64,000 bases of DNA, from NCBI GenBank assembly GCA_028711115.1, contig JAQTSV010000001.1, positions 1,111,005 to 1,175,004 on the forward strand, read 5' to 3'. A model generated the notes under the pieces. That model was not told the DNA's origin. It searched no databases and worked only from the letters and a program-made list of their open reading frames with translations. How positions within the stretch are numbered: position 1 is the stretch's first letter; every line of letters starts with the position of its first letter. A program made the position numbers and the translations under genes. Source of the DNA: Candidatus Omnitrophota bacterium. GTDB lineage: Bacteria; Omnitrophota; Gorgyraeia; Velamenicoccales; JABMQK01. Below are positions 1 to 19,911 of the stretch, piece after piece.

Positions 1-1401
1 TAACAACTCAAAAATATAATCAAGGATAGACATATTAATCCTGCATCTATCATTCGTTGGCGACCTAAGAAAAATATTGCCTTCTATAACATAATTATAA
101 AGAGGACATGTTCCACAGTAAGGTTTATAAACACAGTCGCTGCAGCTAGGAATTCCATCAAGACAAGAAGATAACGACAGAATTTTCACTATCTCATTGT
201 CAATAAATTCTTGATATTTATTTTTATTTACATTCCCCAACCTAAAAGTATCATCACCCATAACGGAAAACATCCTTCCTTCATCACAGGTATATACATC
301 ACCATTAAAATTATAAGCCAACTGGCCTGTTCCAGCTCCGCAAGGGGAACGTATCTCTAAATAATTAGGATCTCTATTAGTCAAAATCTTCTGTAGAAAT
401 ATCTTTGCTGTCCTTTCATAGAAATTATGTCCTTTAAAATTTAACACCATAATATAATCTAATGCTTCTTTATAAAAATCTAAAAAATCTTCTGCAGAAA
501 AACTGATTTTCTGTCGTGTTTTTTCTCTTATTCCAAACGGATTAACTGGCCTTAGGTGGATTCCGTCTAAACCCAAAGCAACAAACTCATCAATAATTTC
601 TCTGGGATAGGACAGGGAGTATTTGGTGATTGTAGTAAGGGCATTGAGTCTATATTTATACGTCTTGTGTTTTTTAACTTCTCCCCTTATCCTTTTAATC
701 CATTTAATAGTGTTTTTATAACTATTATTATTTGTACTCAATACAATCCGATTCTTATTATGTAATATCTCCGGTCCATCTAACGATGTGCAGAAGCTAA
801 CGTTATTCTTGATTAAAAATGTTAAGATCTTCTTGTTCATATAGGTCAAATTTGACACGAGGCTTATTAATAATTTCTTCTTTGCAGATTTGTTCTTTTT
901 ATTGGCGTACTCAACAATGAATTTAATCGTATCAAAATTTACCAAAGGTTCTCCGCCTTGAAATTCTATAGTTATATTAGAATTTGGAGATTCAAAAATT
1001 CTATCAACGACCTTTTCAGCTGTCCGGCTATCCATATCGTATTGGGTTGAATCTAAGTCTTTGGCACCACTTTGACAATATATACACTTATGGTCACATC
1101 GAAGAGTAACTACAACAATATGTAAAGACGGACCGCTTCCTAAGAACATATTGCGAGAAGCGTATTTACTGGTTAGACCATTAAAATCCAGTCTATCTCT
1201 AATAAAACCTTTATCTATAAGTTCGGAGTATTTATTAGGGGAACGATCTTCAATTTTGCCGATAAGAAATAAATCAAATTCAATTGGATCCAAGAAACAA
1301 TATCCACCCATATCATTGGTAAGCAGATACTCACCATTCAGTTTCTTGAATCTAAAAAAACCGACCTTTTCTTTATTAATATCTTTTAGCTCTAAAGGCA
1401 T
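1..1401 (-). CDS. Radical SAM/SPASM-domain maturase-like enzyme, 3' end truncated by the window edge. An ~100-aa N-terminal extension precedes the CxxxCxxC motif.
   Basis: Manual minus-strand translation from the ATG at 1401 gives MPLELKDINKEKVGFFRFKKLNGEYLLTNDMGGYCF...LGSGPSLHIVVVTLRCDHKCIYCQSGAKD... (C-x3-C-x2-C). The C-terminal part read from positions ~1-300 contains CLDGIPSCSDCVYKPYCGTCP, a SPASM/twitch-type Cys cluster. It is absent from the ORF track because it runs off the window. Confidence 0.8.
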   Translation of the reverse strand, partial: MPLELKDINKEKVGFFRFKKLNGEYLLTNDMGGYCFLDPIEFDLFLIGKIEDRSPNKYSELIDKGFIRDRLDFNGLTSKYASRNMFLGSGPSLHIVVVTLRCDHKCIYCQSGAKDLDSTQYDMDSRTAEKVVDRIFESPNSNITIEFQGGEPLVNFDTIKFIVEYANKKNKSAKKKLLISLVSNLTYMNKKILTFLIKNNVSFCTSLDGPEILHNKNRIVLSTNNNSYKNTIKWIKRIRGEVKKHKTYKYRLNALTTITKYSLSYPREIIDEFVALGLDGIHLRPVNPFGIREKTRQKISFSAEDFLDFYKEALDYIMVLNFKGHNFYERTAKIFLQKILTNRDPNYLEIRSPCGAGTGQLAYNFNGDVYTCDEGRMFSVMGDDTFRLGNVNKNKYQEFIDNEIVKILSLSSCLDGIPSCSDCVYKPYCGTCPLYNYVIEGNIFLRSPTNDRCRINMSILDYIFELL

Positions 1402-1581
1402 TTCTTTGTCAGTGCCAAAACATAATTGGAGAATTCACCGATAATAATATTATTAAAACCAGAAGAAACCTTATCAATCTTAACTTCTATGTAGCTATTT
1501 GTTTGTTTTAAGGAGAATCTGGCAAGATTGGAATAGGCTGAAACCGCATTCTGAATTGCTTTTTTTTTATAGATTTTTGTG

Positions 1582-1995
1582 TTAAACCTTACTTTTGGCA
1601 TTATTTTTCTTTACATTTCCGTATTTTTCTTCCCATGGGATAGCGATTCCCAAAGGATCTTTTAACGCGTCGCTATTAAAATCTTCACTAGAAATAGGCA
1701 AAGCAGAATAGATGGCCCGATTAACAATATATTCTCTTATCTTCTTATTGTTGGTTCCTATTTTATGCCTGAGGGAACAATACAGTAATTCATTTTCAAA
1801 ATCTCCCCTCAATTGCGCCTTTTTTCCGGCAGAAATCACTTGTTTGCTCTCCAGAGATACTCTTACTTTTTTCCCTTTACTATCGCTATCTAAAAATACA
1901 TATGCACGGTCAATAAATGCATAACAGGCATTTAATATGGCCTCCAGATTATAAATATCGCTATTTAAAACTATTTTGATAACGTTTTGACTCAT
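1582..1995 (-). CDS. Small hypothetical protein (137 aa) immediately upstream of the radical SAM/SPASM gene; possible accessory or substrate-related protein of that module.
   Basis: The 137-aa ORF has GGGAG about 10 nt upstream of its ATG. It sits in an operon-like position between the secreted Cys-rich protein and the radical SAM gene. No family recognised with certainty. Confidence 0.45.
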   Translation of the reverse strand: MSQNVIKIVLNSDIYNLEAILNACYAFIDRAYVFLDSDSKGKKVRVSLESKQVISAGKKAQLRGDFENELLYCSLRHKIGTNNKKIREYIVNRAIYSALPISSEDFNSDALKDPLGIAIPWEEKYGNVKKNNAKSKV

Positions 1996-2028
1996 TATAA
2001 AATTCTCCCTGGGATTCTACTGAATCTA

Positions 2029-3462
2029 TTAATCGCACACACCATCTTTGTTTTGATCGTTACATGCACGGCAGCATATAAAATAACGTGTGCCATCAAT
2101 CGGAGGGCTTATAGTCTCTGCCCCACCGCCACAATAACAATCATCGTCATATATCCCAGCCTCGCCAACTGACCCAGCTGCAAGATAATAATCTGCGGGA
2201 CACTCCTGAGTTCCGCTACTATCAGTATATGTGATTCTTACGCATGTATTACTAGAACCCCGTACATCCAATCTTGCTGTCGGATTCGTCGTGCCGATAC
2301 CGACGTAGCCGCCTGGTTTTATAACAAAATACGGTGATGTAAATGAAGAATCAGTTCCTGTGCCAGCACCAATTGCAAATGTACTTGAGTTGTAAACAGT
2401 TCCGATAGACCAAGGATACGCTCCTTGACGAATAATATTGATATATTGCCCACTGGCCTGAGGCTTAGTAATAACAAGATTGCCATTATATGCGTTATCT
2501 GCGTTTGTGCCGCTTGGATGAATTGTTATTCTGCCTATAGTATCTAGGGCTTGGGTTGGCGCTGATGTGCCGATACCAACATTACCCGCTGCATCAATAG
2601 CCATAGCATCACGAACGGAACTTGCACTTCTTTGCCTGAATATGATTGGCTCACTAAGATCATCACCCGTCTCGATTATAAGTACTCCGTTATTGCCCGG
2701 ATTAGTGTTGCCTTCGCTATAAATCTTCCAATAATCATTACTTGCCATTACGGCATAGATTGAGAAATTGCCATTGTTGGCGCTGGTCTGGAGTTGAAGA
2801 TTAGCTAACGTTGGACTTGTTGTCCCTATACCCACATTGCCTGCAGCATTAATAACAAGCCTCTCTAGCGAATTAGTCCCCAATGATACGTATGGAGAAT
2901 CTGCCCCTGAAACAGCAGGGTCACCTTCTCCGAGTTCTAAAAATGCTCTTCCGTTTGTAGGACTAACAGTTGTACCATCTACATCATACTGCAATCTATA
3001 AGCAGTGCCTGTCCAAGGCCAAGTCGAATACTTTGACTTTCTTCGATAAAGATATATTAAAAGACGAAGGTTGTTGTTGCCTCCCGATACGGCAAGATTC
3101 TGTATTTCAAAGGGATAGGCAGCGCTTCCGATGGTATCAGTCACATTAGAATAACCTATAATCGCGGCTCCGGTAGCAATACTTGTATAACTCCTAGCGT
3201 CATTCACAGTAAGCCGGGTAACCGGAGCACTAGTTCCAATGCCAACATTATCACTGACAAGAAGCGTTCCATTGGTTAAAGTAGCGCTCCTATAGTAGCT
3301 TCCTACGGCCATCTGGTCTACTCTTAATTCTTTATAGATTCCATACGGGGCGGGATAATAAGTGGTGAGGGTGATTTTTTCTTCGGCAAAAGAATAAAGG
3401 ATAGAAAATAAAACAGCGACTAAAACAAAAGCTGCTAATAGATTTGCCTTTTGTCTCATCAT
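2029..3462 (-). CDS. Secreted or membrane-anchored repeat protein with GNVGIGT(S/T)xPT tail-fibre-like repeats and a C-terminal tail carrying 10 Cys in ~70 aa.
   Basis: N-terminal hydrophobic segment MMRQKANLLAAFVLVAVLFSILYSFA. Four copies of the (A)AGNVGIGT(T/S)(A/S)PT motif. C-terminus CVRITYTDSSGTQECPADYY...DDDCYCGGG...YFICCRACNDQNKDGVCD. Confidence 0.6.
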   Translation of the reverse strand: MMRQKANLLAAFVLVAVLFSILYSFAEEKITLTTYYPAPYGIYKELRVDQMAVGSYYRSATLTNGTLLVSDNVGIGTSAPVTRLTVNDARSYTSIATGAAIIGYSNVTDTIGSAAYPFEIQNLAVSGGNNNLRLLIYLYRRKSKYSTWPWTGTAYRLQYDVDGTTVSPTNGRAFLELGEGDPAVSGADSPYVSLGTNSLERLVINAAGNVGIGTTSPTLANLQLQTSANNGNFSIYAVMASNDYWKIYSEGNTNPGNNGVLIIETGDDLSEPIIFRQRSASSVRDAMAIDAAGNVGIGTSAPTQALDTIGRITIHPSGTNADNAYNGNLVITKPQASGQYINIIRQGAYPWSIGTVYNSSTFAIGAGTGTDSSFTSPYFVIKPGGYVGIGTTNPTARLDVRGSSNTCVRITYTDSSGTQECPADYYLAAGSVGEAGIYDDDCYCGGGAETISPPIDGTRYFICCRACNDQNKDGVCD

Positions 3463-7173: not shown

Positions 7174-7758
7174 TTATCGTCCGGAGGTCATGCGGGAAAA
7201 AAATGTGGTGGTTAAATTCACAGCGGGGTTGTCAAACAAGGATTCAGTTTTCGTAGGGTCTTTTCTTGTCCGTATGGTAACAGTTAAAGCTGTATTATTA
7301 TATGCAGCCGGGGCAACAACATTAAAATAAGTAATACCGTTGGCTATTGTTTCATTACTTGAAGTAAAATTATCGGAAGAATAATAGATTGAGCCATATG
7401 TCCCTCCCGGCCATCTATAGGCATGCCATTGATCTGGCGCAGAAACAGTTCCGCTATTATCATAATCAACCCTAATTACTACCCTTTGGTTACTTTCCTG
7501 TATATAAAGGCTGTTATTATATAGGCCGCCGATTTGATTCTCGAAATCATTTCTAATTCGGTTTATTACCGGTATCAATTCACCCAATAATTTCGTCTGG
7601 GCTGTTGGTTTTGTCTGCATTCTGCGCATTGCCATCTCCAGAGTAATGCCTGTGAGCGCAACCACGCTAAATAACAAAATTGCTATCATAAGCTCCATAA
7701 GGGTAAATCCGGCCAAAAATCTATTATGCTTATACATTATTTCTTGTCTGTTGTGCAT
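7174..7758 (-). CDS. Minor pilin/pseudopilin with a prepilin-type N-terminal cleavage/methylation domain (PilW/GspJ-like).
   Basis: RFLAG|FTLMELMIAILLF class III signal with Glu at +5. Confidence 0.7.
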   Translation of the reverse strand: MHNRQEIMYKHNRFLAGFTLMELMIAILLFSVVALTGITLEMAMRRMQTKPTAQTKLLGELIPVINRIRNDFENQIGGLYNNSLYIQESNQRVVIRVDYDNSGTVSAPDQWHAYRWPGGTYGSIYYSSDNFTSSNETIANGITYFNVVAPAAYNNTALTVTIRTRKDPTKTESLFDNPAVNLTTTFFSRMTSGR

Positions 7759-7776
7759 CGTTTGTTAAACTAAATA

Positions 7777-8223
7777 TTATAGCGTAGGTTCGGTCCAATC
7801 TACTTCTACTTCGGCCTTACGATATTCGTAGCCGCCTCCGGGGTCTGTTATTCTATAACGCCACTTGCCGTTATATTTGGTGGCAAATTCGGTTGTACCA
7901 AAGGTGCTGTAAATATTCAAAAAATTATTTGCATAATCCATATCATACCAGGCACTCCATGCGCCATTAGCCGCTATCGGCGAAGTAGCACAATACCATT
8001 CATCTGCGCGTAAGTACGCCCTGAAATTCTCCAAAACAGTCTGTGCCACTTCATCAGCAAAATGCCTTCTCTGTGCACGCTGGATTATTTTGCTCGAAGA
8101 CAAAGTAATGCTGAACATCCCCGCGCCAATAAGTGCCAAAAGCACGGCGGAAACTATTATTTCTACTAATGTCAACCCTGCCTTCTGCTTTAATTTGTTA
8201 ATCGAATGCATCTTTCCTGACAA
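7777..8223 (-). CDS. Minor pilin/pseudopilin (PilV/GspI-like).
   Basis: KQKAG|LTLVEIIVSAVLLALIG prepilin-type N-terminus. Confidence 0.7.
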   Translation of the reverse strand: MSGKMHSINKLKQKAGLTLVEIIVSAVLLALIGAGMFSITLSSSKIIQRAQRRHFADEVAQTVLENFRAYLRADEWYCATSPIAANGAWSAWYDMDYANNFLNIYSTFGTTEFATKYNGKWRYRITDPGGGYEYRKAEVEVDWTEPTL

Positions 8224-8358: not shown

Positions 8359-8793
8359 TTAGGGGCAAGTGCCCGTACAGCTAGCACTAACGGCAGTATT
8401 AGTAATCTCCCAATAGCGATTATAGCCACCTCTATTTCTTGTAAGTCTCGCTGTAAAAGACGCTCCAGTAGTTGCACCTGTAATTGAATAAGTCCAGCTA
8501 TTATCGCTAACCAAATCCAATCTCAAATTAGTATTTATAGTATCGATTGCAGTAACAGCAGTTGTCGATTGGGGATAATATAAACCTGTCTCTAATCTAT
8601 AAGCCCGCTCAGCTGAACGGATAAGGCTGAGTATAGCCTGGGCCTGTTTGTCCATTGTTCTCTCTCGGGAGCGGACATATGTAGGCAAGGCAATACTTGC
8701 CAATATCCCCACAATAATCACTACCACTACTAATTCAATAAGCGTGACTGCGCGTCTTTTATCTTTATGAAACATATTTATTTTCTTGAACAT
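8359..8793 (-). CDS. Pilin-like protein (144 aa) with a C-terminal Cys pair; the small partner of cassette A.
   Basis: KRRA|VTLIELVVVVIIVGILA, a prepilin-like N-terminus with Ala rather than Gly at -1. C-terminal CTGTCP. Paralog of the ORF at 10094-10525. Confidence 0.7.
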   Translation of the reverse strand: MFKKINMFHKDKRRAVTLIELVVVVIIVGILASIALPTYVRSRERTMDKQAQAILSLIRSAERAYRLETGLYYPQSTTAVTAIDTINTNLRLDLVSDNSWTYSITGATTGASFTARLTRNRGGYNRYWEITNTAVSASCTGTCP

Positions 8794-8806
8794 GTTATTC
8801 TGTACA

Positions 8807-10057
8807 CTACTTAGTTGTTTTTACGTCTGGTGGTGGATTTTTCCCGCCTCCCGGCTCTTTTCCGCCTGCCGAGCTACCTTTTAGTAATTCCCGTGGTTGC
8901 TTCAAATCATCTTGCAATCCCTTCATTAATTGTTCGAATCCTTGCTTTGGATCCATCTCTTGTTTACCTGATAGTATGTTATTTATTGTCTGTAAATCAC
9001 CTTGCAGAGTCTGTTGCATTGTTTTTATTTCATCTAAGGTCGTTCCGCTTTCTATTAACCCATCTAAAGTCACTACACCGCCTGCTGAACCACCTAATAC
9101 CATGTCTAGCGACTTTAGAAAATTTTGTATTTCCTGTGCCAAGTCCTGCAAAGCAACTACTTGGCCATCTGATACAGCCTTGTTATGCACAAGGATCCCC
9201 TCTGCAAAATAATTAGACGGTTTACCAACGCTCATGTTATAAACAAGGACTTTCTTCGGGATACTGACTTTGCTGGTTAAAGTTATCCAGCCGTCTAATG
9301 TAAAGAGTTTATCGCCGATATTCAAATCCTTGACTTTTATCCAGCCTCTTTGCGTATAGAAGGGGTGTTCTTGGGTGACATTGAGGGTTTTATTCAACGT
9401 ATAATATCCTTCGGCATCTTTGGAAAAGATCTTCTTAACGCTTACTTCTATTTTTTTCTTATTCTTTAGATCGTAACCCCATACCGTGTCTTTTGCTTTT
9501 AGTTTCGAGATAAGAATCTTTCCTTTTGGGGTATCAATCTTGGTGTTGCCTGTGAAACAGATAACGACACCACCAGTACCACCGCTGCCGCCGCTACCGC
9601 CACTTCCACCGCTACCACCTGAACCTAAGCTAGCCACCATAATCATACCTCCGGAAACTCCGGGTGGTATATTGCCTGCGCAGACCAACTCTCCGTTCTC
9701 TCTGATTCCAATAGTATATGCACCGCCAGACCTGACTGCCAGGGCGATAACTTCTGTATTGTCACCGTTGTTGGGTACGGGTGTGGTGGATACGGCAAAA
9801 TCAAAGAATCTGCCCTGGATGGGGATATTTGCATCAACCTGGGTTAAACAAGTAGAATAAATATCGTTCTCTAAGGCATAGCGCATCTCTGCTTCACGTA
9901 TAGCAGCTAACTTGTTTTTTGCCTCGGTTGTCCTTGATTTCTCCACCGCATTATTATATTTCGGCAAGGCCACAATAGTCAGAACACTGAGGATGATAAC
10001 AATGACTATCAATTCTATAAAAGTAAAACTTCTTTTGGGATTATTTCTTTTTGCCAT
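8807..10057 (-). CDS. Pilin-like fusion protein: prepilin-type N-terminal domain, a (GSG)n linker, a Hint (intein-like/BIL) domain and an ~120-aa Gln/Leu-rich C-terminal domain.
   Basis: The start is probably the second Met (MAKRNNPKRS|FTFIELIV), which has AAGGAGGA upstream; the track ORF begins 18 nt earlier. Hint blocks: CFTGNTKIDTPKG (A), TQEHPFYT (B), VLVYNMSV...SNYFAEGILVHN (F/G). Residue +1 after HN is Lys. Confidence 0.75.
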   Translation of the reverse strand: MAKRNNPKRSFTFIELIVIVIILSVLTIVALPKYNNAVEKSRTTEAKNKLAAIREAEMRYALENDIYSTCLTQVDANIPIQGRFFDFAVSTTPVPNNGDNTEVIALAVRSGGAYTIGIRENGELVCAGNIPPGVSGGMIMVASLGSGGSGGSGGSGGSGGTGGVVICFTGNTKIDTPKGKILISKLKAKDTVWGYDLKNKKKIEVSVKKIFSKDAEGYYTLNKTLNVTQEHPFYTQRGWIKVKDLNIGDKLFTLDGWITLTSKVSIPKKVLVYNMSVGKPSNYFAEGILVHNKAVSDGQVVALQDLAQEIQNFLKSLDMVLGGSAGGVVTLDGLIESGTTLDEIKTMQQTLQGDLQTINNILSGKQEMDPKQGFEQLMKGLQDDLKQPRELLKGSSAGGKEPGGGKNPPPDVKTTK

Positions 10058-10059
10058 AT
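9613..10059. repeat. Copy A of a ~447-bp near-identical direct repeat, covering the 5' part of the pilin-fusion gene including its start codon.
   Basis: Aligns base-for-base with 11161-11607 apart from ~4 substitutions (tagccacc/tggccacc, catacctcc/catgcctcc, cctgactgcc/cctggctgcc, ctggatgggg/ctgggtgggg). Confidence 0.85.
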
Positions 10060-10093
10060 GCCCATCCTCCTTCATTTATTCAAAAAACTAAAA

Positions 10094-10525
10094 TTAGGGA
10101 CAATTCCCAGCACAGGTAGCATTAATAGAGGTATCCGTAATACTCCAAGTACGGCTATAACCACCTTTGTCTCTTGTCCATGTAGCTTGAAAATGAAGGC
10201 TAGGCTGTCCTGAAGTACCTATACCCAAAATAGAATGAGTTGCCCAATTTCCATCATCAACCAAATCTAACCTTAGATTAGAATTTATGTTACTGAGGTA
10301 AGACTCCGTAGCCCCACCATTAGGATAATAGCCTCCCATTTCCGATTTATATACCCTTTCAGCTGCAAGGACAAAATTGAGTATAGCTATGGCCTGTTTA
10401 TCCATTGTCCTCTCTCGGGAACGCGTATATGTAGGCAAGGCAAGACCTGCTAATATTCCGACGACAACCACTACCACCACTAACTCAATAAGCGTTATTG
10501 CGTGCCTTCCATCTTTATAAAACAT
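10094..10525 (-). CDS. Pilin-like protein (143 aa); the small partner of cassette B.
   Basis: GRHA|ITLIELVVVVVVVGILAG prepilin-like N-terminus. C-terminal CAGNCP. Paralog of 8359-8793. Confidence 0.7.
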   Translation of the reverse strand: MFYKDGRHAITLIELVVVVVVVGILAGLALPTYTRSRERTMDKQAIAILNFVLAAERVYKSEMGGYYPNGGATESYLSNINSNLRLDLVDDGNWATHSILGIGTSGQPSLHFQATWTRDKGGYSRTWSITDTSINATCAGNCP

Positions 10526-10542
10526 ATTGCATTTTCGTGAAA

Positions 10543-11604
10543 TTACTTTTGTTCCTTTGGCGACTCGGGTGCTCCAGAGTCTTCAGGTTTTTCAGGATTC
10601 GAGTATCCCATTTTCTCTAAAAAATCTTCCCATTGCTTTTCTATCTCTTGATACTTTTTGTATAAATCATCTAAACAGCCCTGGTCCGAACAACCAAACA
10701 AAGTCTCTTTTATTTTTTCTAATTGATCTTGCAGTGTTTTTGCAATGCCTTCCGGATCTTCCCCCTTATAAAATTCCAGTTCGACATACATTTCATCTAA
10801 ATATTTTTGAAGTTCTTCGGGTTTGGTTGGTGGTTTCTCAGGCTGTTCAGTTTTTTCTTTGATCTTATCTAGTTGTTCTTGCAATTTTTCCACATCTTTT
10901 CCTTCATATTTTGACAACTCCATTTCGAATTGGTCTATTTTTGCTTGTACTTCTGATAAGCAAACCAAATCTCCTTTGCACTCATCAATCATTTTGCTTA
11001 TTTCATCTAATTGGCTCATCATCTTAACAAAAACATCATCCCATCCCATACTACCGCCGGTGCCACCGCTTCCACCACTGCCGCCACTGCCGCCGCTACC
11101 GCCACTGCCACCGCTGCCGCCGCTACCGCCGCTACCACCGCTACCACCACTGCCACCACTACCACCTGAACCTAAGCTGGCCACCATAATCATGCCTCCG
11201 GAAACTCCGGGTGGTATATTGCCTGCGCAGACCAACTCTCCGTTCTCTCTGATTCCAATAGTATATGCACCGCCAGACCTGGCTGCCAGGGCGATAACTT
11301 CTGTATTGTCACCGTTGTTGGGTACGGGTGTGGTGGATACGGCAAAATCAAAGAATCTGCCCTGGGTGGGGATATTTGCATCAACCTGGGTTAAACAAGT
11401 AGAATAAATATCGTTCTCTAAGGCATAGCGCATCTCTGCTTCACGTATAGCAGCTAACTTGTTTTTTGCCTCGGTTGTCCTTGATTTCTCCACCGCATTA
11501 TTATATTTCGGCAAGGCCACAATAGTCAGAACACTGAGGATGATAACAATGACTATCAATTCTATAAAAGTAAAACTTCTTTTGGGATTATTTCTTTTTG
11601 CCAT
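10543..11604 (-). CDS. Pilin-like fusion protein: the same N-terminal pilin domain as 8807-10057, a longer (GSG)n linker and an acidic coiled-coil-like C-terminal domain; no Hint domain.
   Basis: The first ~143 aa are almost identical to the cassette A fusion and are encoded by a near-identical ~447-bp DNA repeat. GGAGGAGGG lies upstream of the ATG. Confidence 0.7.
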   Translation of the reverse strand: MAKRNNPKRSFTFIELIVIVIILSVLTIVALPKYNNAVEKSRTTEAKNKLAAIREAEMRYALENDIYSTCLTQVDANIPTQGRFFDFAVSTTPVPNNGDNTEVIALAARSGGAYTIGIRENGELVCAGNIPPGVSGGMIMVASLGSGGSGGSGGSGGSGGSGGSGGSGGSGGSGGSGGSGGTGGSMGWDDVFVKMMSQLDEISKMIDECKGDLVCLSEVQAKIDQFEMELSKYEGKDVEKLQEQLDKIKEKTEQPEKPPTKPEELQKYLDEMYVELEFYKGEDPEGIAKTLQDQLEKIKETLFGCSDQGCLDDLYKKYQEIEKQWEDFLEKMGYSNPEKPEDSGAPESPKEQK

Positions 11605-11696: not shown

Positions 11697-11742
11697 AACT
11701 CTCTCCCACCAGAGAACTTTTCTGATGAGAGAGAGTCTTATT
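11697..11742 (-). terminator. Hairpin (8-bp stem ACTCTCTC/GAGAGAGT) downstream of major pilin copy 1; possible terminator or attenuator.
   Basis: Inverted repeat aactctctc...gagagagtc with a ~23-nt loop, followed on the transcript by U-containing sequence. Confidence 0.3.
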
Positions 11743-11796: not shown

Positions 11797-12192
11797 TTAC
11801 TCAGGACAACTCGCAGTAGGAGTACAATTTAGAGTCCCATCTTCAGTGATGTACATTGTATAATTGGCATAAGTACCGCCTGCATCCACTGTATTTCTTT
11901 TTACCCAGGCAATGCTGTTGACAGAAGTGCCAACCGACGGCGTAGAGAAATACCTTGCAGTGGAAAACTCTGAGCCTGTATCCAGATTACCTAGCGTACT
12001 TGCATAGGAATTATACTGGGCGTAATACCTGACCTGAGCAGCACGTAAAGTACCCAGTATTGTTTTTCCCTCTGCCATTCTTGCTCTTTCGCTTACTTTT
12101 ATGTACCTAGGAAGAGCTACTGACGCCAATATACCAATTACGATGATAACAATGATTAACTCGAGCAGTGTAAAACCTTTCTTGCGGAACAT
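11797..12192 (-). CDS. Type IV major pilin / GspG-like pseudopilin (copy 1).
   Basis: MFRKKG|FTLLELIIVIIVIGILA, a canonical class III signal. C-terminal disulfide loop CTPTASCPE. Strong sigma70-like promoter and a 3' hairpin. Confidence 0.8.
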   Translation of the reverse strand: MFRKKGFTLLELIIVIIVIGILASVALPRYIKVSERARMAEGKTILGTLRAAQVRYYAQYNSYASTLGNLDTGSEFSTARYFSTPSVGTSVNSIAWVKRNTVDAGGTYANYTMYITEDGTLNCTPTASCPE

Positions 12193-12274
12193 CTTTTCCC
12201 CCTTTCGCTTCTTTATTGACTTTTTATTTTATTTTATTATTTCCTTTTTCCTCTCACTCTAATTTATTTTCCCA

Positions 12275-12283
12275 CCCCCCCCC
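12275..12283. repeat. Homopolymeric C9 (G9 on the coding strand) tract in the leader of major pilin copy 1.
   Basis: cccaCCCCCCCCCtctataaa read directly from the sequence. Confidence 0.9.
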
Positions 12284-12322
12284 TCTATAAACAATATTAT
12301 ATTTATTCTTGCTATTTTTTCT

Positions 12323-12351
12323 ATTATAACTCTTTCTTTCAGCAAAATCAA
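12323..12351 (-). promoter_or_regulatory. Sigma70-like promoter for major pilin copy 1: -35 TTGATT, 17-nt spacer, perfect -10 TATAAT.
   Basis: Minus-strand sequence TTGATTttgctgaaagaaagagtTATAAT, about 120 nt upstream of the pilin ATG. A poly-G tract lies in the intervening leader. Confidence 0.45.
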
Positions 12352-12384
12352 ACAATATAAATTACATATACAGAAACATCTTAA

Positions 12385-12780
12385 TTACTCAGGACAACTC
12401 GCAGTAGGAGTACAATTTAGAGTCCCGGTCTCAGTGATGTACATTGTATAATTGGCATAAGTACCGCCTGCATCCACTGTATTTCTTTTTACCCAGGCAA
12501 TGCTGTTGACAGAAGTGCCGACTCCTGGCGTAGAGAAATACCTTGCAGTGGAAAACTCTGAGCCTGTATCCAGCTTATTTAGGTCAGTTGTATAGGAATT
12601 ATACTGGGCATAATACCTGACCTGAGCAGCACGTAAAGTACCCAGTATTGTTTTTCCCTCTGCCATTCTTGCTCTTTCGCTTACTTTTATGTACCTAGGA
12701 AGAGCTACTGACGCCAATATACCAATTACGATGATAACAATGATTAACTCGAGCAGTGTAAAACCTTTCTTGCGGAACAT
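12385..12780 (-). CDS. Type IV major pilin (copy 2), a near-identical tandem paralog of copy 1.
   Basis: Same sequence apart from a few substitutions (ASTLGNL vs TTDLNKL, SVGTSV vs GVGTSV, EDGTL vs ETGTL). The true start is probably the second Met (MFRKKGF), because AAGGGAGGGGAG directly precedes it. Confidence 0.8.
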   Translation of the reverse strand: MFRKKGFTLLELIIVIIVIGILASVALPRYIKVSERARMAEGKTILGTLRAAQVRYYAQYNSYTTDLNKLDTGSEFSTARYFSTPGVGTSVNSIAWVKRNTVDAGGTYANYTMYITETGTLNCTPTASCPE

Positions 12781-12894: not shown

Positions 12895-14148
12895 TTAACG
12901 ACCCGATGCAGTGGCTAAACTGAATATCGGTAAAAATATGGAAATGACCATACTCCCTATTATTACGCCCATAAACAAAATCATTACTGGTTCAAATATA
13001 GAAGTCAGCCTTGCTACAAAAGCACTCAAATAATCCTGGTAGTATTTTGCAATTCTCTTAAACATACCGGAAAGTTCTCCTATCTCCTCGCCAGTCGAAA
13101 TCATCTGTATTACCATGGGAGGGAAAAAACCTGTCTTTTCTAACGGTATGGAGAACGACTTTCCTTCACGTACATTAATTTTGATGTTGCCGATTATCTC
13201 CCGCATTATCTTATTTGGCTGGCTGCGTTCAGAAATATCCAAAGCATAAATAATAGGCACGCCACTTTCGATAAGAATAGACATCGTAGTGGAAAAACTT
13301 TCTATCATCATAAAACGGAAGAAATTACCAATAACCGGAAGGCCTATTTGAATCCTCTCTATATAACTCCGCGTGCTGTCTGTCTTCATTGAATTCCTGA
13401 TTAAAGAAACAATGCCTATAATAATCAGCACTATTAACAAAAATCTTTTTCTTAAGGTATTACTTATGGCAATGAGAATCTTGGTAGGCATAGGTAACTC
13501 CACATTCATAGAAGTAAGAATGCTGGTAAAGGTGGGGACTATTCTTATTACAAAGAACATCACTGCGCCAATCGCCACAACAAAAAGAATGCAGGGATAT
13601 ATTAACGCAGAAACGATCTTTGTTTTAAATGCCTGTCTGTCTTCTAAATAATCGGCCAGATGCCCCAAGACCATAGGTAAGTTACCGCTGGCTTCTCCGG
13701 TTTCTATCAAATAAAGCCAAAGTTCGGAAAATATGCTTTTATGTTTGGCCAAAGAATCACGGAAAGTCCGGCCTGATTCCATATCTTTTGTAATCTCGGT
13801 AACTGCACTATGCAATTTGTGCGACTCGATCTGTCTTCCGATAACATCCAGGGATTTCATTAAACTTACACCTGCGCCTAAAAGCATGGCTAGCTGACGT
13901 GCAAAAATAACCAGATCTCCGGAATTAGCACCTTCATGCTTAAAACTTTTGACCTTCCCTTTACCAAAAGCAAGACCTTTTTTCTTTTGTTCTTCTACAA
14001 CGAAGGATATATCGTATTGAACAATTGAAGTAATAACTAAACCTTTTCTCTGAAGGATAGCTACGGCTTCATCTTGGTTCGCAGCCTCTAAGAGACCGGT
14101 GTCTTTTATTCCTTCTTTTGTACGACCAATATAGGAAAATTTCGGCAT
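12895..14148 (-). CDS. pilC: Type IV pilus/T2SS platform protein, PilC/GspF family.
   Basis: 417 aa, two GspF repeats, three TM helices. Confidence 0.85.
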   Translation of the reverse strand: MPKFSYIGRTKEGIKDTGLLEAANQDEAVAILQRKGLVITSIVQYDISFVVEEQKKKGLAFGKGKVKSFKHEGANSGDLVIFARQLAMLLGAGVSLMKSLDVIGRQIESHKLHSAVTEITKDMESGRTFRDSLAKHKSIFSELWLYLIETGEASGNLPMVLGHLADYLEDRQAFKTKIVSALIYPCILFVVAIGAVMFFVIRIVPTFTSILTSMNVELPMPTKILIAISNTLRKRFLLIVLIIIGIVSLIRNSMKTDSTRSYIERIQIGLPVIGNFFRFMMIESFSTTMSILIESGVPIIYALDISERSQPNKIMREIIGNIKINVREGKSFSIPLEKTGFFPPMVIQMISTGEEIGELSGMFKRIAKYYQDYLSAFVARLTSIFEPVMILFMGVIIGSMVISIFLPIFSLATASGR

Positions 14149-14184
14149 GGCTATTTTTTATTTTAGTACATTTATAACACTATG

Positions 14185-15885
14185 TCAATCTACTAACGTA
14201 GCGCTTAGTGCTTCTTCTAAACTGGTTATGCCCTGTTTTACCGCAGATAATGCGCTTTCAGTTAAAGTCCGCATTCCGTTGTTACGGGCAATTTCTTTTA
14301 TTTTTTGAGAATTTGCCTTCTCTACAATTAAATCTCTTAGTGCATCGTTCAATAACATAACTTCTGCCACACATATCCTGCCTTTGTATCCGACGTGAGC
14401 ACATTTATCGCAGCCCTTGGCCTTATAGATTAAATCCTGGCCTAAATCTAACCTTTGTCTTTCTTCCTGGGAAGGCTCATATGGCTCTTTACAATCGGGG
14501 CATAATTTTCTAACCAATCTCTGGGCTACAATTAAAATTAAAGATGGCATTAAAAGATACGATTCAATACCTATATCAATAAGCCGGGTAATACATGATG
14601 GGGCATCATTTGTATGAAGCGTACTTAATACCAAGTGGCCAGTAAGGGCAGAACGTACACAAATCTGAGCGGTATCTAAATCTCGGACTTCTCCCACCAT
14701 CATTATATCCGGGTCCTGCCTTAAAAATGACCTCAAGGCAGAAGCAAATGTTAAGCCAATCTCTGGTTTAATCTGCACCTGGTTAATCCCTTCCAGACGG
14801 TATTCTACAGGATCCTCAACAGTCACTATGTTTTCTTTGGGAGACTTAAGTTCGTTTAATATCGCATACAAAGTAGTAGTCTTACCGCTGCCCGTAGGAC
14901 CGGTAAAAAAAATTAAGCCATAAGGACTGTGTATGCCTTTTCTTATATCCTCCAATTGCTTCTTGTCAAAACCGAGTACGGCCAAGTCTAATTTTGCCTT
15001 ATCTTTATCTAAAATTCTTAAAACAACTTTTTCGCCATAAATGGTGGGAATAACAGAAACACGAAAATCAATTGCGCGTTCCTCTAATTTTACAGAAAAT
15101 CCCCCGTCCTGAGGCAGGCGTTTTTCTGCTATGTCGAGCTTGGAAAGAATTTTTACGCGAGAGACTATGGGCAGATGCAGATGTTTTGCCGGCGGAGGTA
15201 TTTCATGCAAAACTCCGTCGATGCGGTACCTTAAGCTTATGCGGGCTTTAAAAGGTTCAATGTGTATATCGGAGGCCCGCTCATCTATCGCCTGCTTTAA
15301 AATAAGGTCCACTAATTTTACAACCGGCGCCTCTTCTGCACGGGCTATTAACCTATCAATGCTTAATTCTTCCTCGCTAGAAATCTCTTCCACCAAAGCA
15401 TCGCCGAGATAAGATTCTTTTACGGCCTGCTTTAACAAATCTCTCTTCCCATAGAATTGATCTATGGCCTTCTCGATGTCAGACTTGGTGGCTACAACCA
15501 AATTTACTTCACAGCCAGTCATCTTTCTTATGTTATCAATAAGAATTACATCCAGCGGATCATAGATTGCGCAGGTAATCGAACTCATGTTTCTTGACAG
15601 GGGAATTACTAGATTTTTTAGCGCGAACTCTTTGGGGATAAGTATATCGAGTTGGCTATCTATTTGAGGCTTTAGCAGATCAGAACCTAAAGACACATAG
15701 GGTATTTTCAGCTGTTTTCCTAAGGCCGCAACTATATCTTGTTCTGTAACAAAATTTAATTTAACAAGTATTTCACCTATGCGGCTGCCTTCTTTTTGCT
15801 GTGTCTTTATGGCCTTATCTAACTGCTCCTGTGTGATGACTCCTTCTTTAAGAAGAATCTCGCCCAGCCTAAGATATGTTGCCAT
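14185..15885 (-). CDS. pilB: Type IV pilus assembly ATPase, PilB/GspE family.
   Basis: N-terminal GSPII_E_N-like repeats, Walker A GPTGSGKTTT, tetracysteine motif CPDC...CDKC. Confidence 0.9.
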   Translation of the reverse strand: MATYLRLGEILLKEGVITQEQLDKAIKTQQKEGSRIGEILVKLNFVTEQDIVAALGKQLKIPYVSLGSDLLKPQIDSQLDILIPKEFALKNLVIPLSRNMSSITCAIYDPLDVILIDNIRKMTGCEVNLVVATKSDIEKAIDQFYGKRDLLKQAVKESYLGDALVEEISSEEELSIDRLIARAEEAPVVKLVDLILKQAIDERASDIHIEPFKARISLRYRIDGVLHEIPPPAKHLHLPIVSRVKILSKLDIAEKRLPQDGGFSVKLEERAIDFRVSVIPTIYGEKVVLRILDKDKAKLDLAVLGFDKKQLEDIRKGIHSPYGLIFFTGPTGSGKTTTLYAILNELKSPKENIVTVEDPVEYRLEGINQVQIKPEIGLTFASALRSFLRQDPDIMMVGEVRDLDTAQICVRSALTGHLVLSTLHTNDAPSCITRLIDIGIESYLLMPSLILIVAQRLVRKLCPDCKEPYEPSQEERQRLDLGQDLIYKAKGCDKCAHVGYKGRICVAEVMLLNDALRDLIVEKANSQKIKEIARNNGMRTLTESALSAVKQGITSLEEALSATLVD

Positions 15886-15886
15886 T

Positions 15887-17380
15887 TTATTTATTTTCCC
15901 AGATACTTAATGCCTTATCAATTTCTCCCTTGCGATATTGATAATCAGCTTGTTCTCTCTGTTCAAATATTTCCTTATTTAATGGTTCTTGTTTCGGAGA
16001 TTGAGACTTGGCTAAATCAATGCCCGGGGTCTTTAAAATCCTGGGGGTAATAAATACCAATAGCTCACGGTTTTTATCATCCCTGTCTTTGTGTCTGAAC
16101 ATAGCACCAGCAAAAGGAATATCCCCTAGAATCGGTACCTTTTTTCTCGTGTCGTTTAAGTCTTTTCTTAACAATCCTCCGATGACGACTGTTTCACCGT
16201 CCAAGACAGATATTGTAACTTTGGCGCTTCTTTCCTGAGGGTCAAAATAGCCGGTTAAATTGCTGTCCTCAACTGAAGAAATTGTAGGTTCTAACACCAT
16301 AGTAACTTCACCAGTCTCCGCATTTACGCTTGGCGTGACTTTAAGCGTAACGCCGACTTCGTATCTTTCGGCAGATGTACTCTGGGCATCACCTTGCTGA
16401 TCATAAGTAACGACTGTACCGACTGCGTCATTACCTGTAATCTTGATTTCTGCGGTTTCGTTGCTTAAAGTACGGATTCTCGGCCTGGCCAAAACTTTCG
16501 TGTTTTTATCTGTAATCAACAACTGTAGAGTTGCAGAAGATGAATCAGTGGGGACGCTAATAGAACCAGTAGTGATTTGCGTTTTAGCGATATCCCTGGC
16601 TACACTGCCGAAAGTATCAAAAGGAAAAGCCATACCTGTCCTGCCGGCAAGAGTCAGGGTATATAATGTACCGGACCACTCCATGCCTAATGTGTCCACT
16701 AATTGTTTTGTAGTATCAATTATTTCTGCCTCAATTACAACCTGGGGCACAGGTACGTCGAGTTTCTTAATCATTTCCTCAATACGTTCAAACCGCGAAG
16801 GCAAATCCGTAATAACTAAGCTGTTTGTCCGGGAATCTTCGCTTATTCTTCCTTCCCCGGAAATTAAATTCTGTAGAGCATCTGCCAAACTAGAGCCAGA
16901 TGTACTTGTCCCGGAAGCAGTATTTAAAGGAGACGAATTCACGCGAGCATATTTTAAGGTATATACCCTGGTAATTGTCTTTATGGGCTCTTCTTCCGGT
17001 GGCGGAGGCGGCTGTAGTTCCTTTACCACAAAGATATTGCTGCCTTCATCTAATTCATAAACTAAATTATATGAACTTAGAATCTTTTCCAGAGCGTCTC
17101 TTATAGGAACATTATCTAAATATAGCGTAATTGACTTATCAGCCACTTCTTGTGCCGCAATAAAATTCAAACCGGATTGCTGCGAGAATATTTTAAGTAC
17201 ATTGATGAGGCTGGCGCCCTCTAAATCCAGGGATATCTTTCGCCAAGATGCCTGCGTCAATAATTCCTCACTTAAACCTGCGAAGGTGGAATCAGGGAAA
17301 GAGAAAATCACAAGCAATAGGGAGAATACTAAAATAATAAATATCGAAAGAAATGATCTATTTGCCTTTTTGTTAAACAT
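15887..17380 (-). CDS. pilQ: Secretin, PilQ/GspD family.
   Basis: Signal peptide, N-domains, C-terminal secretin motif VVIGGLLRKD...VPILGDIPFAGAMF...LLVFITPRIL. Confidence 0.85.
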   Translation of the reverse strand: MFNKKANRSFLSIFIILVFSLLLVIFSFPDSTFAGLSEELLTQASWRKISLDLEGASLINVLKIFSQQSGLNFIAAQEVADKSITLYLDNVPIRDALEKILSSYNLVYELDEGSNIFVVKELQPPPPPEEEPIKTITRVYTLKYARVNSSPLNTASGTSTSGSSLADALQNLISGEGRISEDSRTNSLVITDLPSRFERIEEMIKKLDVPVPQVVIEAEIIDTTKQLVDTLGMEWSGTLYTLTLAGRTGMAFPFDTFGSVARDIAKTQITTGSISVPTDSSSATLQLLITDKNTKVLARPRIRTLSNETAEIKITGNDAVGTVVTYDQQGDAQSTSAERYEVGVTLKVTPSVNAETGEVTMVLEPTISSVEDSNLTGYFDPQERSAKVTISVLDGETVVIGGLLRKDLNDTRKKVPILGDIPFAGAMFRHKDRDDKNRELLVFITPRILKTPGIDLAKSQSPKQEPLNKEIFEQREQADYQYRKGEIDKALSIWENK

Positions 17381-17400
17381 CCTACACCCCCCTGTTTACA

Positions 17401-17805
17401 CTATTGATTATTTAGTTCTATTGTTCTTTTCAGAGCAATAGTATATTCCTTGTCATCAAAAACTAAAGTTATGCCTTCTTTTTCGATCTTGGTAATCTGG
17501 GCACCATCAAGCTTATCGCCTATGCCGTAAATCTTATTGTTAATTATCACTTTGGGTTTGTCGCTACCCCAGATTAGACCACTAAGTTTATAGCCTGAAG
17601 TATTGAATGTCACCTCTGGCTCAATGACAACGGGTTGTTCCACTACGGTTTCGACTTCTGGTTGAGGTTCAACTTTTACTTCCGGCAACCAATCCTTAAA
17701 AGGATTTTTCTTTTCCTCAGAAAATCCCATACTGAGAAAAACAAAATTCAGCAGAAGAACACCGATGAATACAATTACCTTATTTTTAAAAGTGCCTTTT
17801 AACAT
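17401..17805 (-). CDS. Small TM-anchored protein, PilP-like (pilus assembly/secretin-associated).
   Basis: N-terminal TM helix, Pro/Glu-rich linker, C-terminal beta-rich domain. Sits between the PilO-like gene and the secretin. Confidence 0.4.
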   Translation of the reverse strand: MLKGTFKNKVIVFIGVLLLNFVFLSMGFSEEKKNPFKDWLPEVKVEPQPEVETVVEQPVVIEPEVTFNTSGYKLSGLIWGSDKPKVIINNKIYGIGDKLDGAQITKIEKEGITLVFDDKEYTIALKRTIELNNQ

Positions 17806-17806
17806 T

Positions 17807-18334
17807 TTATTTTTTAGATATGAATGCCGTAATGCTTAAAAAAGCCTCGACCAGAGGACTCTCTGATTGTTCTAATTCAGGCGTAATTTGCAAACGTGTA
17901 ATCTTTGTCAATGTCTCCAGATTCTCAATCTCTGACAGAAACATCACTAAATCAGAATAATCTGCCCTGATATTCATGCTCATATCCAACGTAAAATAAT
18001 ATTGCTGATCTTGCAATCCGGATGGATCAAAGCTAGAAATATCGATATTATGTTTTGAAGCCAAATCGTTAATCTTGCCCATCACAGAAACTGTTTCCTT
18101 TGTCTGCCATCCTATATTTTTTAATTTATCGAATTCCTGGGATAATTTTTTTATTTTATTGGCTAATTCTATTTCCTGCTGATAAGTTTGAATCTTACCC
18201 CTTATGCTGCTTGACCTCATCTTTTGGTGATCCCAAATTTTTCTGCCTAAAAACAAGGTTATAAGAGCTACCACAATTATAAAAATCAGGTCTTTATTCT
18301 TTCTGAAATCAAATTTTTTAAAAAGTTCTGTCAT
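17807..18334 (-). CDS. PilO-like inner-membrane pilus assembly protein.
   Basis: Single N-terminal TM helix, coiled-coil segment; lies directly downstream of the PilM-PilN fusion. Confidence 0.5.
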   Translation of the reverse strand: MTELFKKFDFRKNKDLIFIIVVALITLFLGRKIWDHQKMRSSSIRGKIQTYQQEIELANKIKKLSQEFDKLKNIGWQTKETVSVMGKINDLASKHNIDISSFDPSGLQDQQYYFTLDMSMNIRADYSDLVMFLSEIENLETLTKITRLQITPELEQSESPLVEAFLSITAFISKK

Positions 18335-18336
18335 AT

Positions 18337-19911
18337 TTAACCCGCTATCTCAACATCGATTTCGAATCTGGTTACTTTATAGGTATTCATAATATCGCTT
18401 TTTAAAGACTTAACCGATATATTATTTACCTTATTAGAAAACAGAGGGCTGTTCTTCAGGTTAGAGATACAATTATAAGGTGCATCGACGGCTTCTTTTT
18501 CGTTCTCTCTGTAAACCAAGCCTTTCAAGTAAAGATACTTATTCGATCTATTAAAAGAAATCTCTTCAAGCCATACTCCTTCAGGCAGAAGATTAGGTAA
18601 AACCTCCAATTTTTCAGAAATAAGGATATCCTTTACGAAAAGCTTTTTATAAACCGCTAACTTATCGATAAGGTTATTATGTAAAACTTCCAAGGTTGCT
18701 GCATCCAAACCCTTGAGATCACTGCTTAACGCAGAATCTATTTCTTTAGAGACTGTCTCCAGCTGCCGACCGATTGGCTTTATGCTCAAGTCGGACAACA
18801 TAAATATACCCACCAATACTGCAGAAGCTATAGCCAGAGTCTTTATAATTTTAGCCTTGGGGATATCTAATATTTCACCCACTATGTCAGAAAGAATCTG
18901 AATATAGGAAGATAGAAAACCAAGGGCGAATTTCTGCTTCTTACCTAGATTAATAATAAGAGAAGACGGTTTATTTATACGTAATGATGCGCCTAATGCC
19001 TTTGCCAAATCCAGGCTATACTCTTCTTTGAACCCAAACATTTCATCTGTGTTCTTATATTGGACCGGCATTCCCAATTCTTTATTAAAGGCACTGACTA
19101 ATTCTTTTGATTCCTGCTTGGCCAAAACTACAATCCGGTCAACGCCCTTCTTCAAAAATTGTCTGCGGAAATAATCTATAGAAACCCTGACTTCGTTTAT
19201 TATACGGAAGGACACAGACTCCATATCCGCTTCCGCAGATTCAGGGCCACCAGCTATCTTTATATCCCTGGAAAAACAGGGTATACCATTGTCTACTATC
19301 GCGATAGTGCCTTCATCCCGCTCTAGCTCAATAACCACCACTGATTCTTTATTTGACATTATCTTTTTGACCTTAAGTAACCTAAAAAGAGAAAACTGTG
19401 ATGGTTCTATTGCCGCCACATTGAGCTTTAATTGGGTTAATATGGAATTGTATTTCTGGAGGTTATCATTTTTGATACCGGCAAAGAGCACCTCTATAAT
19501 ATTTTTCTGGGAGAATGTCTGGTAATCATAAGTAATTTCTTCCAGTTTAAAAGGTATGTATTTCTTTATCTCGAAACCAATACTGGCATCAATATCTTTT
19601 CTGGGAATCTGCGGAATCTCAAAAAACCTGACTATTAAATCCCGGTAAGGCACGCAAACAACAATTCCGGTATTCTCCAGATTGACCCTGGAATCGCGTA
19701 TCCTTCTCTGTAGAAACGCTACGATTTCTACTTCATTATCTAAGAATACGCTGAAAATATTATCCTTGGGAACTGTTACGCCCGAGGGCGCAGCAATGTC
19801 TTTAGGGTAAGGCGCATAGATATGGTTTTTTATCTTACCGGTACTAGCAGTCTCTACTATGCTTAAACCCTGAGAACCTAAAAATATGCCTACTGCATTC
19901 TTATCAAACAT
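18337..19911 (-). CDS. pilM: PilM-PilN fusion (actin-like ATPase domain plus TM segment and a PilN-like periplasmic domain).
   Basis: 524 aa. N-terminal PilM-like fold. Internal TM helix IIKTLAIASAVLVGIFML, then a PilN-like C-terminal region. Confidence 0.65.
   Translation of the reverse strand: MFDKNAVGIFLGSQGLSIVETASTGKIKNHIYAPYPKDIAAPSGVTVPKDNIFSVFLDNEVEIVAFLQRRIRDSRVNLENTGIVVCVPYRDLIVRFFEIPQIPRKDIDASIGFEIKKYIPFKLEEITYDYQTFSQKNIIEVLFAGIKNDNLQKYNSILTQLKLNVAAIEPSQFSLFRLLKVKKIMSNKESVVVIELERDEGTIAIVDNGIPCFSRDIKIAGGPESAEADMESVSFRIINEVRVSIDYFRRQFLKKGVDRIVVLAKQESKELVSAFNKELGMPVQYKNTDEMFGFKEEYSLDLAKALGASLRINKPSSLIINLGKKQKFALGFLSSYIQILSDIVGEILDIPKAKIIKTLAIASAVLVGIFMLSDLSIKPIGRQLETVSKEIDSALSSDLKGLDAATLEVLHNNLIDKLAVYKKLFVKDILISEKLEVLPNLLPEGVWLEEISFNRSNKYLYLKGLVYRENEKEAVDAPYNCISNLKNSPLFSNKVNNISVKSLKSDIMNTYKVTRFEIDVEIAG

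Follow-up and report, generated by a model that had tools for sequence, protein, structure and literature searches.

Tandem modular minor pilins and a putatively self-removing Hint domain in a type IV pilus operon of an Omnitrophota bacterium

How can one and the same pilin come to carry two quite different C-terminal modules? The question is raised by two neighbouring genes of a Candidatus Omnitrophota bacterium, which lie in a stretch of 64,000 nucleotides (nt) of contig JAQTSV010000001.1 (GenBank assembly GCA_028711115.1, positions 1,111,005 to 1,175,004). This stretch is referred to as the window; all coordinates are given in its numbering, and all the genes of interest are on its minus strand. 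The two genes encode pilin-like fusion proteins (X_A or fusion A, X_B or fusion B), each followed by the gene of a small pilin (Y_A, Y_B). A preliminary description of the sequence had proposed two such cassettes, each made of a long pilin and a pilin of about 143 amino acids (aa), and the open reading frames (ORFs) are present as described. The region is probably the minor-pilin block of a type IV pilus operon (T4aP/MSHA-like), and the explanation that is favoured here as a whole, with some confidence, is that of tandem modular minor pilins, one of which carries a self-removing, mobile or gene-converted Hint domain. Each of the elements concerned is of a known kind, namely modular pilins, Hint domains of the bacterial intein-like (BIL) or PT-HINT type and gene conversion between tandem paralogues; they are combined here in a new way.

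The first line of evidence is the mosaic divergence of the two cassettes. The ORF of fusion A spans 8807-10075, and its second ATG, at 10057, is taken as the real start (MAKRNN..., 416 aa), since a GGAGG lies 9 nt upstream, the identity with fusion B begins there and the public gene call also gives 416 aa. From this start, 160 of the 163 N-terminal residues of the two fusions are identical (BLASTP, E 3e-114), the identity reaching about 20 residues into a Gly-Ser linker; the near-identical block that had been described is therefore real, but about 163 aa long and not 143. At the DNA level, the identity runs from 3 nt before the ATG of MAKRNN to inside the (GGS)n linker, and the 60 nt upstream, at 40% identity, are unrelated except for the ribosome-binding site. 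Within the pilin modules 4 of 432 nt differ, with a synonymous divergence (dS) of 0.020 and a non-synonymous divergence (dN) of 0.006 (Nei-Gojobori, as for all the values given here). The small pilins are more diverged paralogues, as had been supposed, with 57% identity (E 5e-54; dS 0.80, dN 0.32), and between the tails of the two fusions dS is saturated and dN is 0.92. The 40-fold gap in synonymous divergence between X and Y implies that one duplication of an X+Y pair does not by itself account for the locus, and that the X modules have been recently homogenised, presumably by gene conversion or by a recombination with its 3' end in the repetitive linker.

The shared module has the features of a type IV pilin. 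The leader of X, MAKRNNPKRS, is followed by FTFIELIVIVIIL (FTFIE), in which Glu5 is present, with Ser instead of Gly at position -1. The module matches the GspG and PilA models with E-values of 1e-9 to 1e-10 and the PilA of M. xanthus (PDB 8tj2) with 4.9e-6; ComP_DUS is matched as well by the pilin module of fusion B, and the score against N_methyl (PF07963) is 20.0 bits, for a cut-off of 21.2. The pilin module (aa 1-144) is followed by a GGS linker, closed in both proteins by GGTGG, and then by Hint and tail in A or by the tail alone in B, which is the organisation of modular pilins. One conserved pilin module joined by a flexible linker to two unrelated C-terminal modules was the architecture first proposed, and it was borne out.

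The tails themselves resemble no family that could be recognised. Tail B (168 aa) is acidic, with a net charge of -20, and holds two Cys pairs, as had been reported, their spacing being Cx5C (CKGDLVC) and Cx4C (CSDQGC) and not the CxxxC first given. It shows an internal duplication (z = 6.6; 0 of 3000 shuffles), with a short Cys pair in each half, and AlphaFold2, run without an alignment, models it as six helices (predicted local distance difference test, pLDDT, of about 77-91), for which a fold search returned generic three-helix bundles only. In tail A (124 aa), helices are predicted at 297-395 with a pLDDT of 55-79, within an otherwise poor model of full-length fusion A (mean pLDDT 41, likewise without an alignment), which was left out of the fold search. 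No Pfam family was found above threshold for either tail, and a word-indexed search gave no homologue of tail B, a weak null, the exact A and B sequences being absent from the collection searched. The Pfam searches and, for tail B, the fold search revealed no toxin or recognisable adhesin fold, and all that can be said is that the modelled fold is of a kind that serves protein-protein contacts. Homology between the two tails was also considered. Their Smith-Waterman score of 55, against 33 +/- 6 for shuffled sequences (z about 3.8, with 6 of 2000 shuffles reaching 55), is marginal, and weaker per repeat; since shuffling destroys the helical periodicity, this homology is treated as unproven.

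The relatives of the locus do without these additions. The PilC of the operon shares 60% identity with its counterpart in Ca. Velamenicoccus archaeovorus LiM, and both in this organism and in the metagenome-assembled genome (MAG) JBAZMA01 a series of PilB, PilC, major pilin, a radical-SAM-like gene, X, Y, two minor pilins and Memo/AMMECR1 is found; a third locus, from a MAG mislabelled Planctomycetia, has the same set of plain pilins. The three loci possess a single X and a single Y, both plain, 124-133 residues long when counted from the prepilin motif, and without any extension, and in these syntenic regions there is no pilin of more than 178 residues and no Hint-like motif. Moreover, the closest relatives of the X module in an exhaustive HMMER search are six plain pilins of 146-176 aa (40-46% identity), and plain X orthologues end in short disordered G/S/P tails. 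The plain X and Y of the relatives mean that the tethers and tails are specific to the lineage studied here. A metagenome scan with the pilin module found no close relative, the matches being distant pilins with 36-43% identity over the N-terminus, and the word-indexed search with the module gave no match, with the same weakness as a null as for tail B. Searched with full-length A, the same collection returned two weak Hint matches only, the GGS words probably swamping other candidates. Finally, a genome scan with PilC gave 7 loci, the three closest of which (66-74% identity) end within about 2 kb of PilC, short of X and Y. In the relatives, the radical-SAM-like gene (about 323 aa, CxxxCxxC) stands between the major pilin and X (locus L007, 11975-12946; locus L006, 5640-6614), and it is absent from the window.

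Three assemblies of the organism studied here carry both fusions at exactly the same protein sequence, with mostly the same neighbouring proteins; GCA_028716625.1 (contig JAQUPK010000001.1, 984 kb) is one of those with identical fusions. An assembly artefact was rejected, as three contigs, 0.98-1.57 Mb long, carry the same proteins, and it is exactly here that short-read assemblies break, as true repeats would lead one to expect. The Logan short-read contigs with an identical PilC (L015-L017; SRR22315506/08/09) all stop about 140 nt past pilC, having entered the first copy of the duplicated major-pilin gene by about 20-30 nt; this agrees with true repeats, which long-read assemblies alone can resolve.

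The second line of evidence concerns the Hint domain of fusion A, the presence of which had been noted from the start and is real (Table 1). Its sequence, CFTGNTKI...GILVHN, keeps the catalytic residues, with Cys167, Thr228-Gln-Glu-His231 and His291-Asn292, and has Lys293 at +1; Cys1, the block-B TxxH and the terminal His-Asn do not vary across an alignment that includes the Hints of other pilins. Among solved structures the best relative is 2lwy, a bacterial intein-like domain, which aligns end to end (E 2.1e-5), and the NCBIfam intein N- and C-terminal models match weakly, the C-terminal model alone passing its curated cut-off. Judged by its residues, the domain fits the type-A BIL or PT-HINT family, as it combines a Cys nucleophile, TxxH and a C-terminal His-Asn with the absence of Cys, Ser or Thr at +1. 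Type-A BILs end in His-Asn and lack a +1 nucleophile; splicing is possible for them, and cleavage products dominate (PMC4031507). The best 150 hits of the search contain 224 complete copies of this Hint subfamily, 221 of which start with Cys and 217 end with His-Asn, while Lys stands at +1 in 179. Many members of the subfamily consist of 3-5 tandem Hints linked by K-G-G(-G) (proteins P0004-P0152), and we know of no function for such arrays.

The best match of the exhaustive search is a twin of this Hint in a wholly different protein. This protein, P0003 (MDD5550974.1, of the same series as the pilins MDD5550227-232), has 3086 aa and a signal peptide, is made of repeats of the GIGTTNP...LEVAG type, and is present in the three assemblies that also hold the pilin locus. 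The two Hints are identical in 373 of 378 nt, and this identity is sharply bounded, running from the TGT codon of Cys1 to the codon of the +1 Lys, with unrelated flanks. Of the five differences, four are clustered in three successive codons (9218-9226 in the window; GGT AAA CCG vs GAT AAG ACA, G-K-P vs D-K-T), in the block-F region and adjoining a Ser where related Hints have His. When the Hint is removed from P0003, its two flanks align as one ordinary repeat unit with the other units of the protein, and the domain stands 2000 aa from the C-terminus, inside a repeat. That a structural repeat should be interrupted in this way argues for splicing out, and against the release of a terminal module. 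The twin pattern is one of two things, a recent codon-exact copying between the hosts or a recent gene conversion between two resident Hints; exact boundaries are also expected in the latter case, because conversion tracts stop where homology stops. A canonical (class 1) intein was considered and rejected, given that Lys is found at +1 in both copies and that the domain is housed at a lineage-specific tail junction of a pilin in one case and in a surface protein rich in repeats in the other. The gene of P0003 is placed between those of an 824-aa TPR-secretin and a 545-aa T2SSE-type ATPase (L013, 3001-12261; contig JAQTLW010000001.1 of GCA_028714715.1), a neighbourhood which points to a second export system, of the type II/IV-like kind, that would serve the giant fibre alone.

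Hint domains are borne by other pilins as well. P0039 (334 aa) is an X-like pilin (38% identity) followed by a Hint, with KFNK after the last His-Asn; P0092 (276 aa) consists of pilin, G-rich linker and Hint, with KPFE; P0094 (359 aa) of pilin, an extra domain and Hint, with KPM; and P0016 (553 aa) of pilin, a Cys-rich region and two Hints, with 21 residues (QQKSLV...) after the last His-Asn. All four are unrelated, complete genes ending before the contig ends, and none is in a pilus operon. In three of them (P0039, P0092 and P0094) the Hint is at the extreme C-terminus, as in Hedgehog proteins with their Hog/Hint domain. A C-terminal Hint of the Hedgehog type leaves N-terminal cleavage or transfer as the only possibilities. 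These pilins, for their part, have no sterol-recognition region, and fusion A differs in having a 124-aa module after its Hint. Since a terminal Hint allows N-terminal cleavage only, a pilin-borne Hint need not imply the release of a payload. A survey of modular pilins lists 1 protein with a pilin motif and PF07591 among 1219 (PMC8179133, Dataset S1). Apart from this entry, pilin-Hint fusions seem to have escaped description: full texts that contain both 'Hint domain' and 'pilin' were found to make, by term count, passing mentions only. As a side observation, a second pilin-like motif, 'GFTPLE', precedes the real prepilin motif by 25-45 codons in several pilin genes of Velamenicoccus-type genomes and in P0039 (L007, about 12779 and 14174-14596; L008, about 12986; L018, 137-1141); it could be a conserved upstream element that the long ORF reads through.

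The Hint of fusion A had been supposed to release the C-terminal module. Its position just before tail A agrees with this idea; nevertheless, it has the look of something added and not of a built-in device for release, because fusion B has the same layout without a Hint, the twin lies inside a repeat of an unrelated protein, and nothing releasable follows the Hint in three of the four other pilin-Hint fusions.

Taken together, these data can be described by the following scheme. An ancestor with one pair of plain minor pilins, X and Y, would have undergone a tandem duplication of the pair. In a second step, both X copies would have become modular, each with its pilin module, a flexible (GGS)n tether and a different orphan helical-bundle tail, the X modules being assembled into the filament, probably at or near its tip, together with Y and the two following minor pilins. 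The pilin modules would then have been homogenised in recent times, so that both tails are mounted on the same assembly module, and a Hint, recently copied to or converted with that of P0003, would have come to lie exactly at the junction of tether and tail in A. After export, this Hint would form a thioester at Cys167, with cyclisation of Asn292. One outcome would be that it splices out, leaving pilin, tether and tail A in the layout of B; the other, which should be the more frequent if the domain behaves as the characterised type-A BILs, would be a cleavage to a tail-less tethered pilin and a free Hint and tail. The tails may have a role in binding a ligand or prey.

Several points weigh against this scheme. 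The Ser at -1 and the N_methyl score below the cut-off mean that cleavage of X by the prepilin peptidase is an assumption, and both twin Hints have Ser in place of the conserved block-F His, a change that may weaken cleavage at the C-terminal side. The identity within exact boundaries fits a recent insertion and a conversion between old resident Hints alike, and does not distinguish between them. Furthermore, the three identical assemblies may sample one population, so that their lack of variation is weak evidence.

As regards the operon, its gene order in the direction of transcription is assembly machinery, two major pilins, fusion B, Y_B, fusion A, Y_A, two further minor pilins and Memo/AMMECR1 (Table 1). 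The genes of PilC, the PilB-type ATPase, the secretin, PilO and PilM-PilN are on the same strand and in the same block as the fusions, and the two further minor pilins are syntenic in the relatives. The intergenic gaps are short (13-36 nt), and these, together with the hairpin upstream of fusion B, which comes from a consensus scan only, fit a minor-pilin transcript of low expression. The major pilins are a third tandem duplication at the locus (dS 0.072, dN 0.040), and the major-pilin gene is also duplicated in a related MAG, along with part of pilC (L004, 10251-11827). The pilus extension ATPase (14185-15885) possesses an MshEN domain, which hints at a control of the pilus by cyclic diguanylate. 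Just downstream of the pilus block, in the minus-strand region of about 1-3462, a 477-aa ORF without a Pfam match (2029-3462) is followed by an HxsD-family gene (1582-1995), which adjoins a radical-SAM/Fer4_12 gene; this looks like a His-Xaa-Ser-type radical-SAM cluster.

Table 1. Features of the pilus locus, in the order of transcription, with their positions in the window.
Feature	Coordinates	Strand	Basis or remark
Assembly machinery: PilM-PilN fusion, PilO, T2SSB/PilP-like protein, secretin, PilB-type ATPase with MshEN, PilC	12895..19911	-	Pfam
Two tandem major-pilin genes, 131 aa each	11797..12780 (12385-12780; 11797-12192)	-	ORFs, 95% aa identical
Terminator-like hairpin between major pilins and fusion B	11697..11737	-	17-bp stem; consensus scan only
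Fusion B (X_B), 353 aa: pilin module, (GGS)n linker, acidic helical tail	10543..11604	-	ORF, same public gene call
Pilin module of X_B, aa 1-144	11173..11604	-	428/432 nt identical to 9626-10057
Gly-Ser linker of X_B, aa 145-185	11050..11172	-	period 9, 12.2 copies (Tandem Repeats Finder)
Tail B, aa 186-353	10546..11049	-	duplicated internally; two three-helix bundles in the model
Small pilin Y_B, 143 aa, CxGxCP loop at end	10094..10525	-	N_methyl E 3.7e-5
Fusion A (X_A), 416 aa: pilin module, linker, Hint, helical tail	8807..10057	-	ORF, public gene call
Pilin module of X_A, aa 1-144	9626..10057	-	428/432 nt identical to 11173-11604
Gly-Ser linker of X_A, aa 145-166, ends GGTGGVVI	9560..9625	-	9-nt units, 5.7 copies
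Hint domain of X_A, aa 167-292 (126 residues)	9182..9559	-	PF07591 E 5.7e-12; then Lys293 (9179-9181)
Tail A, aa 293-416, G/L/Q/K-rich, Gly/Pro/Lys-rich end	8810..9181	-	predicted helical
Small pilin Y_A, 144 aa from first ATG	8359..8793	-	N_methyl E 8.8e-7; alternative start 8775
Two further minor pilins closing the pilin block	7174..8223 (7777-8223; 7174-7737)	-	PilV-like, 148 aa; GspJ/ComGE-like, 187 aa

In general, the arrangement agrees with that of the modular type IV pilins already known, such as PilB (vWA) and PilC (lectin) of Streptococcus sanguinis and CofB of enterotoxigenic Escherichia coli (PMC8179133), in which a C-terminal module is likewise grafted by a linker on a pilin module encoded among minor pilins. 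The present proteins differ in that orphan helical bundles are grafted where an adhesin domain would otherwise be recognised, and in that their GGS linkers, of 22 and 41 residues, are of unusual length and repetitiveness. Moreover, the pilin module is nearly identical in two paralogues, in one of which what appears to be a domain of the autoprocessing type is set between tether and module. With the type-A BILs, such as that of Clostridium thermocellum (2lwy) and those of secreted variable proteins, the Hint shares Cys1, TxxH and His-Asn, the lack of Cys, Ser or Thr at +1, the absence of a homing endonuclease and a secreted host protein. Here, however, the host is a type IV pilin, the +1 Lys is strongly conserved in the subfamily, the block-F His has become Ser in this copy, and the activity is a predicted one.

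Four other explanations were weighed against that of modular minor pilins with a removable Hint. The one that survives best, though it is itself unlikely, is that the tails are dispensable, fast-evolving extensions of a duplicated pilin and the Hint a purely selfish element, neither with a function of its own. Tails without homologues, relatives that do without them and plain X orthologues that already end in short disordered segments are what would be expected in that case, and the Hints at C-terminal sites of other pilins could be regarded as occupying permissive positions. Nevertheless, the frames of the two tails, of 124 and 168 codons, are intact in the three assemblies, tail B is modelled as a duplicated, well-formed bundle of helices in which the Cys pairs are conserved, the pilin modules have stayed near-identical and the catalytic residues of the Hint are intact.

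Ranking below it, and improbable too, is a recombinational switching of the pilE/pilS type, in which the identical modules of 430 nt and the GGS arrays would shuffle, delete or amplify units of tail and Y. The pilin modules are indeed direct repeats 1547 bp apart, with their 4 differences in 432 nt, conversion is evident from the dS of 0.02 for X against 0.80 for Y, the linkers differ in copy number (about 5.7 vs 12.2 units of nine nt) and the locus breaks short-read assemblies. With the Neisseria system it thus shares tandem pilin-related sequences and evidence of gene conversion. Antigenic variation by pilE/pilS exchanges the variable region; here, on the reverse, it is the conserved module that has been homogenised, and each copy is a complete, translatable gene that has a ribosome-binding site of its own. 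A search with both tails (tblastn) gave no second copy in the window, so that the silent cassettes which had been imagined are not found there, and neither are promoterless partial cassettes. Nor could the expected variation among strains be seen: the fusion proteins are identical in the three assemblies, which possibly represent one population, and tails are lacking in the more distant relatives. Deletion or amplification driven by the repeats is still conceivable.

More doubtful again is the delivery of polymorphic effectors, with the pilin trafficking a variable C-terminal effector to the tip and the Hint releasing tail A onto or into a target. PF07591 is the best Pfam match of the Hint, which directly precedes the C-terminal module of an exported protein, as HINT peptidases do in polymorphic toxins (PMC3482391); the two tails are unrelated, and the phylum has predatory or epibiotic members depending on type IV pili (PMC10066038). 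On the other hand, the analogy with toxin systems fails in three of the four defining features tested, as no toxin domain, immunity gene or array of cassettes was found, and the fourth, a HINT just before the C-terminal domain, is seen in A only, cassette B having neither a Hint nor another peptidase. Tail A gave no toxin match in a search that comprised Pfam and a window-wide tblastn only; neither tail has a toxin or enzyme signature, a Pfam match or known homologues, and tail B folds only as generic three-helix bundles. The gene after each fusion, where an immunity gene might be looked for, is a pilin paralogue, and there are no spare cassettes in the window. Moreover, the twin Hint lies 2000 aa from the C-terminus of its host, inside a repeat, and 2-4 residues only follow the Hint in three of the other pilin-Hint proteins. 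The carrier is a pilin and not RHS, FHA or another stalk, and pilins are never mentioned as carriers in the survey of polymorphic toxins (PMC3482391).

The least probable reading makes autoprocessing a programmed step of pilus function instead of a passenger's activity, the thioester at the end of the tether being used at the pilus surface either for shedding the tail or for a Hedgehog-like covalent transfer of the pilin C-terminus to a nucleophile on a prey or host envelope component or on another subunit; it would explain why Cys...His-Asn-Lys Hints recur C-terminally on pilins in at least 5 unrelated lineages, and why they occur in a giant surface fibre beside a second secretin/ATPase pair in a phylum of predatory type, and is nonetheless very unlikely.

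The interest of the locus, which is moderate, lies mainly in the pilin-Hint architecture and in the codon-exact twin Hint. The twin Hints provide a clean natural case of an endonuclease-free, intein-like domain that has been moved or converted, codon-exact, between unrelated extracytoplasmic proteins, and a Cys...His-Asn-Lys Hint with the predicted activity in the periplasm and a natural GGS context could serve protein engineering. For the organism, type IV pili are viewed as central to attachment and predation in Omnitrophota (PMC10066038), and an identical pilin body with two different long-tethered modules represents a simple way to diversify what the pilus displays.

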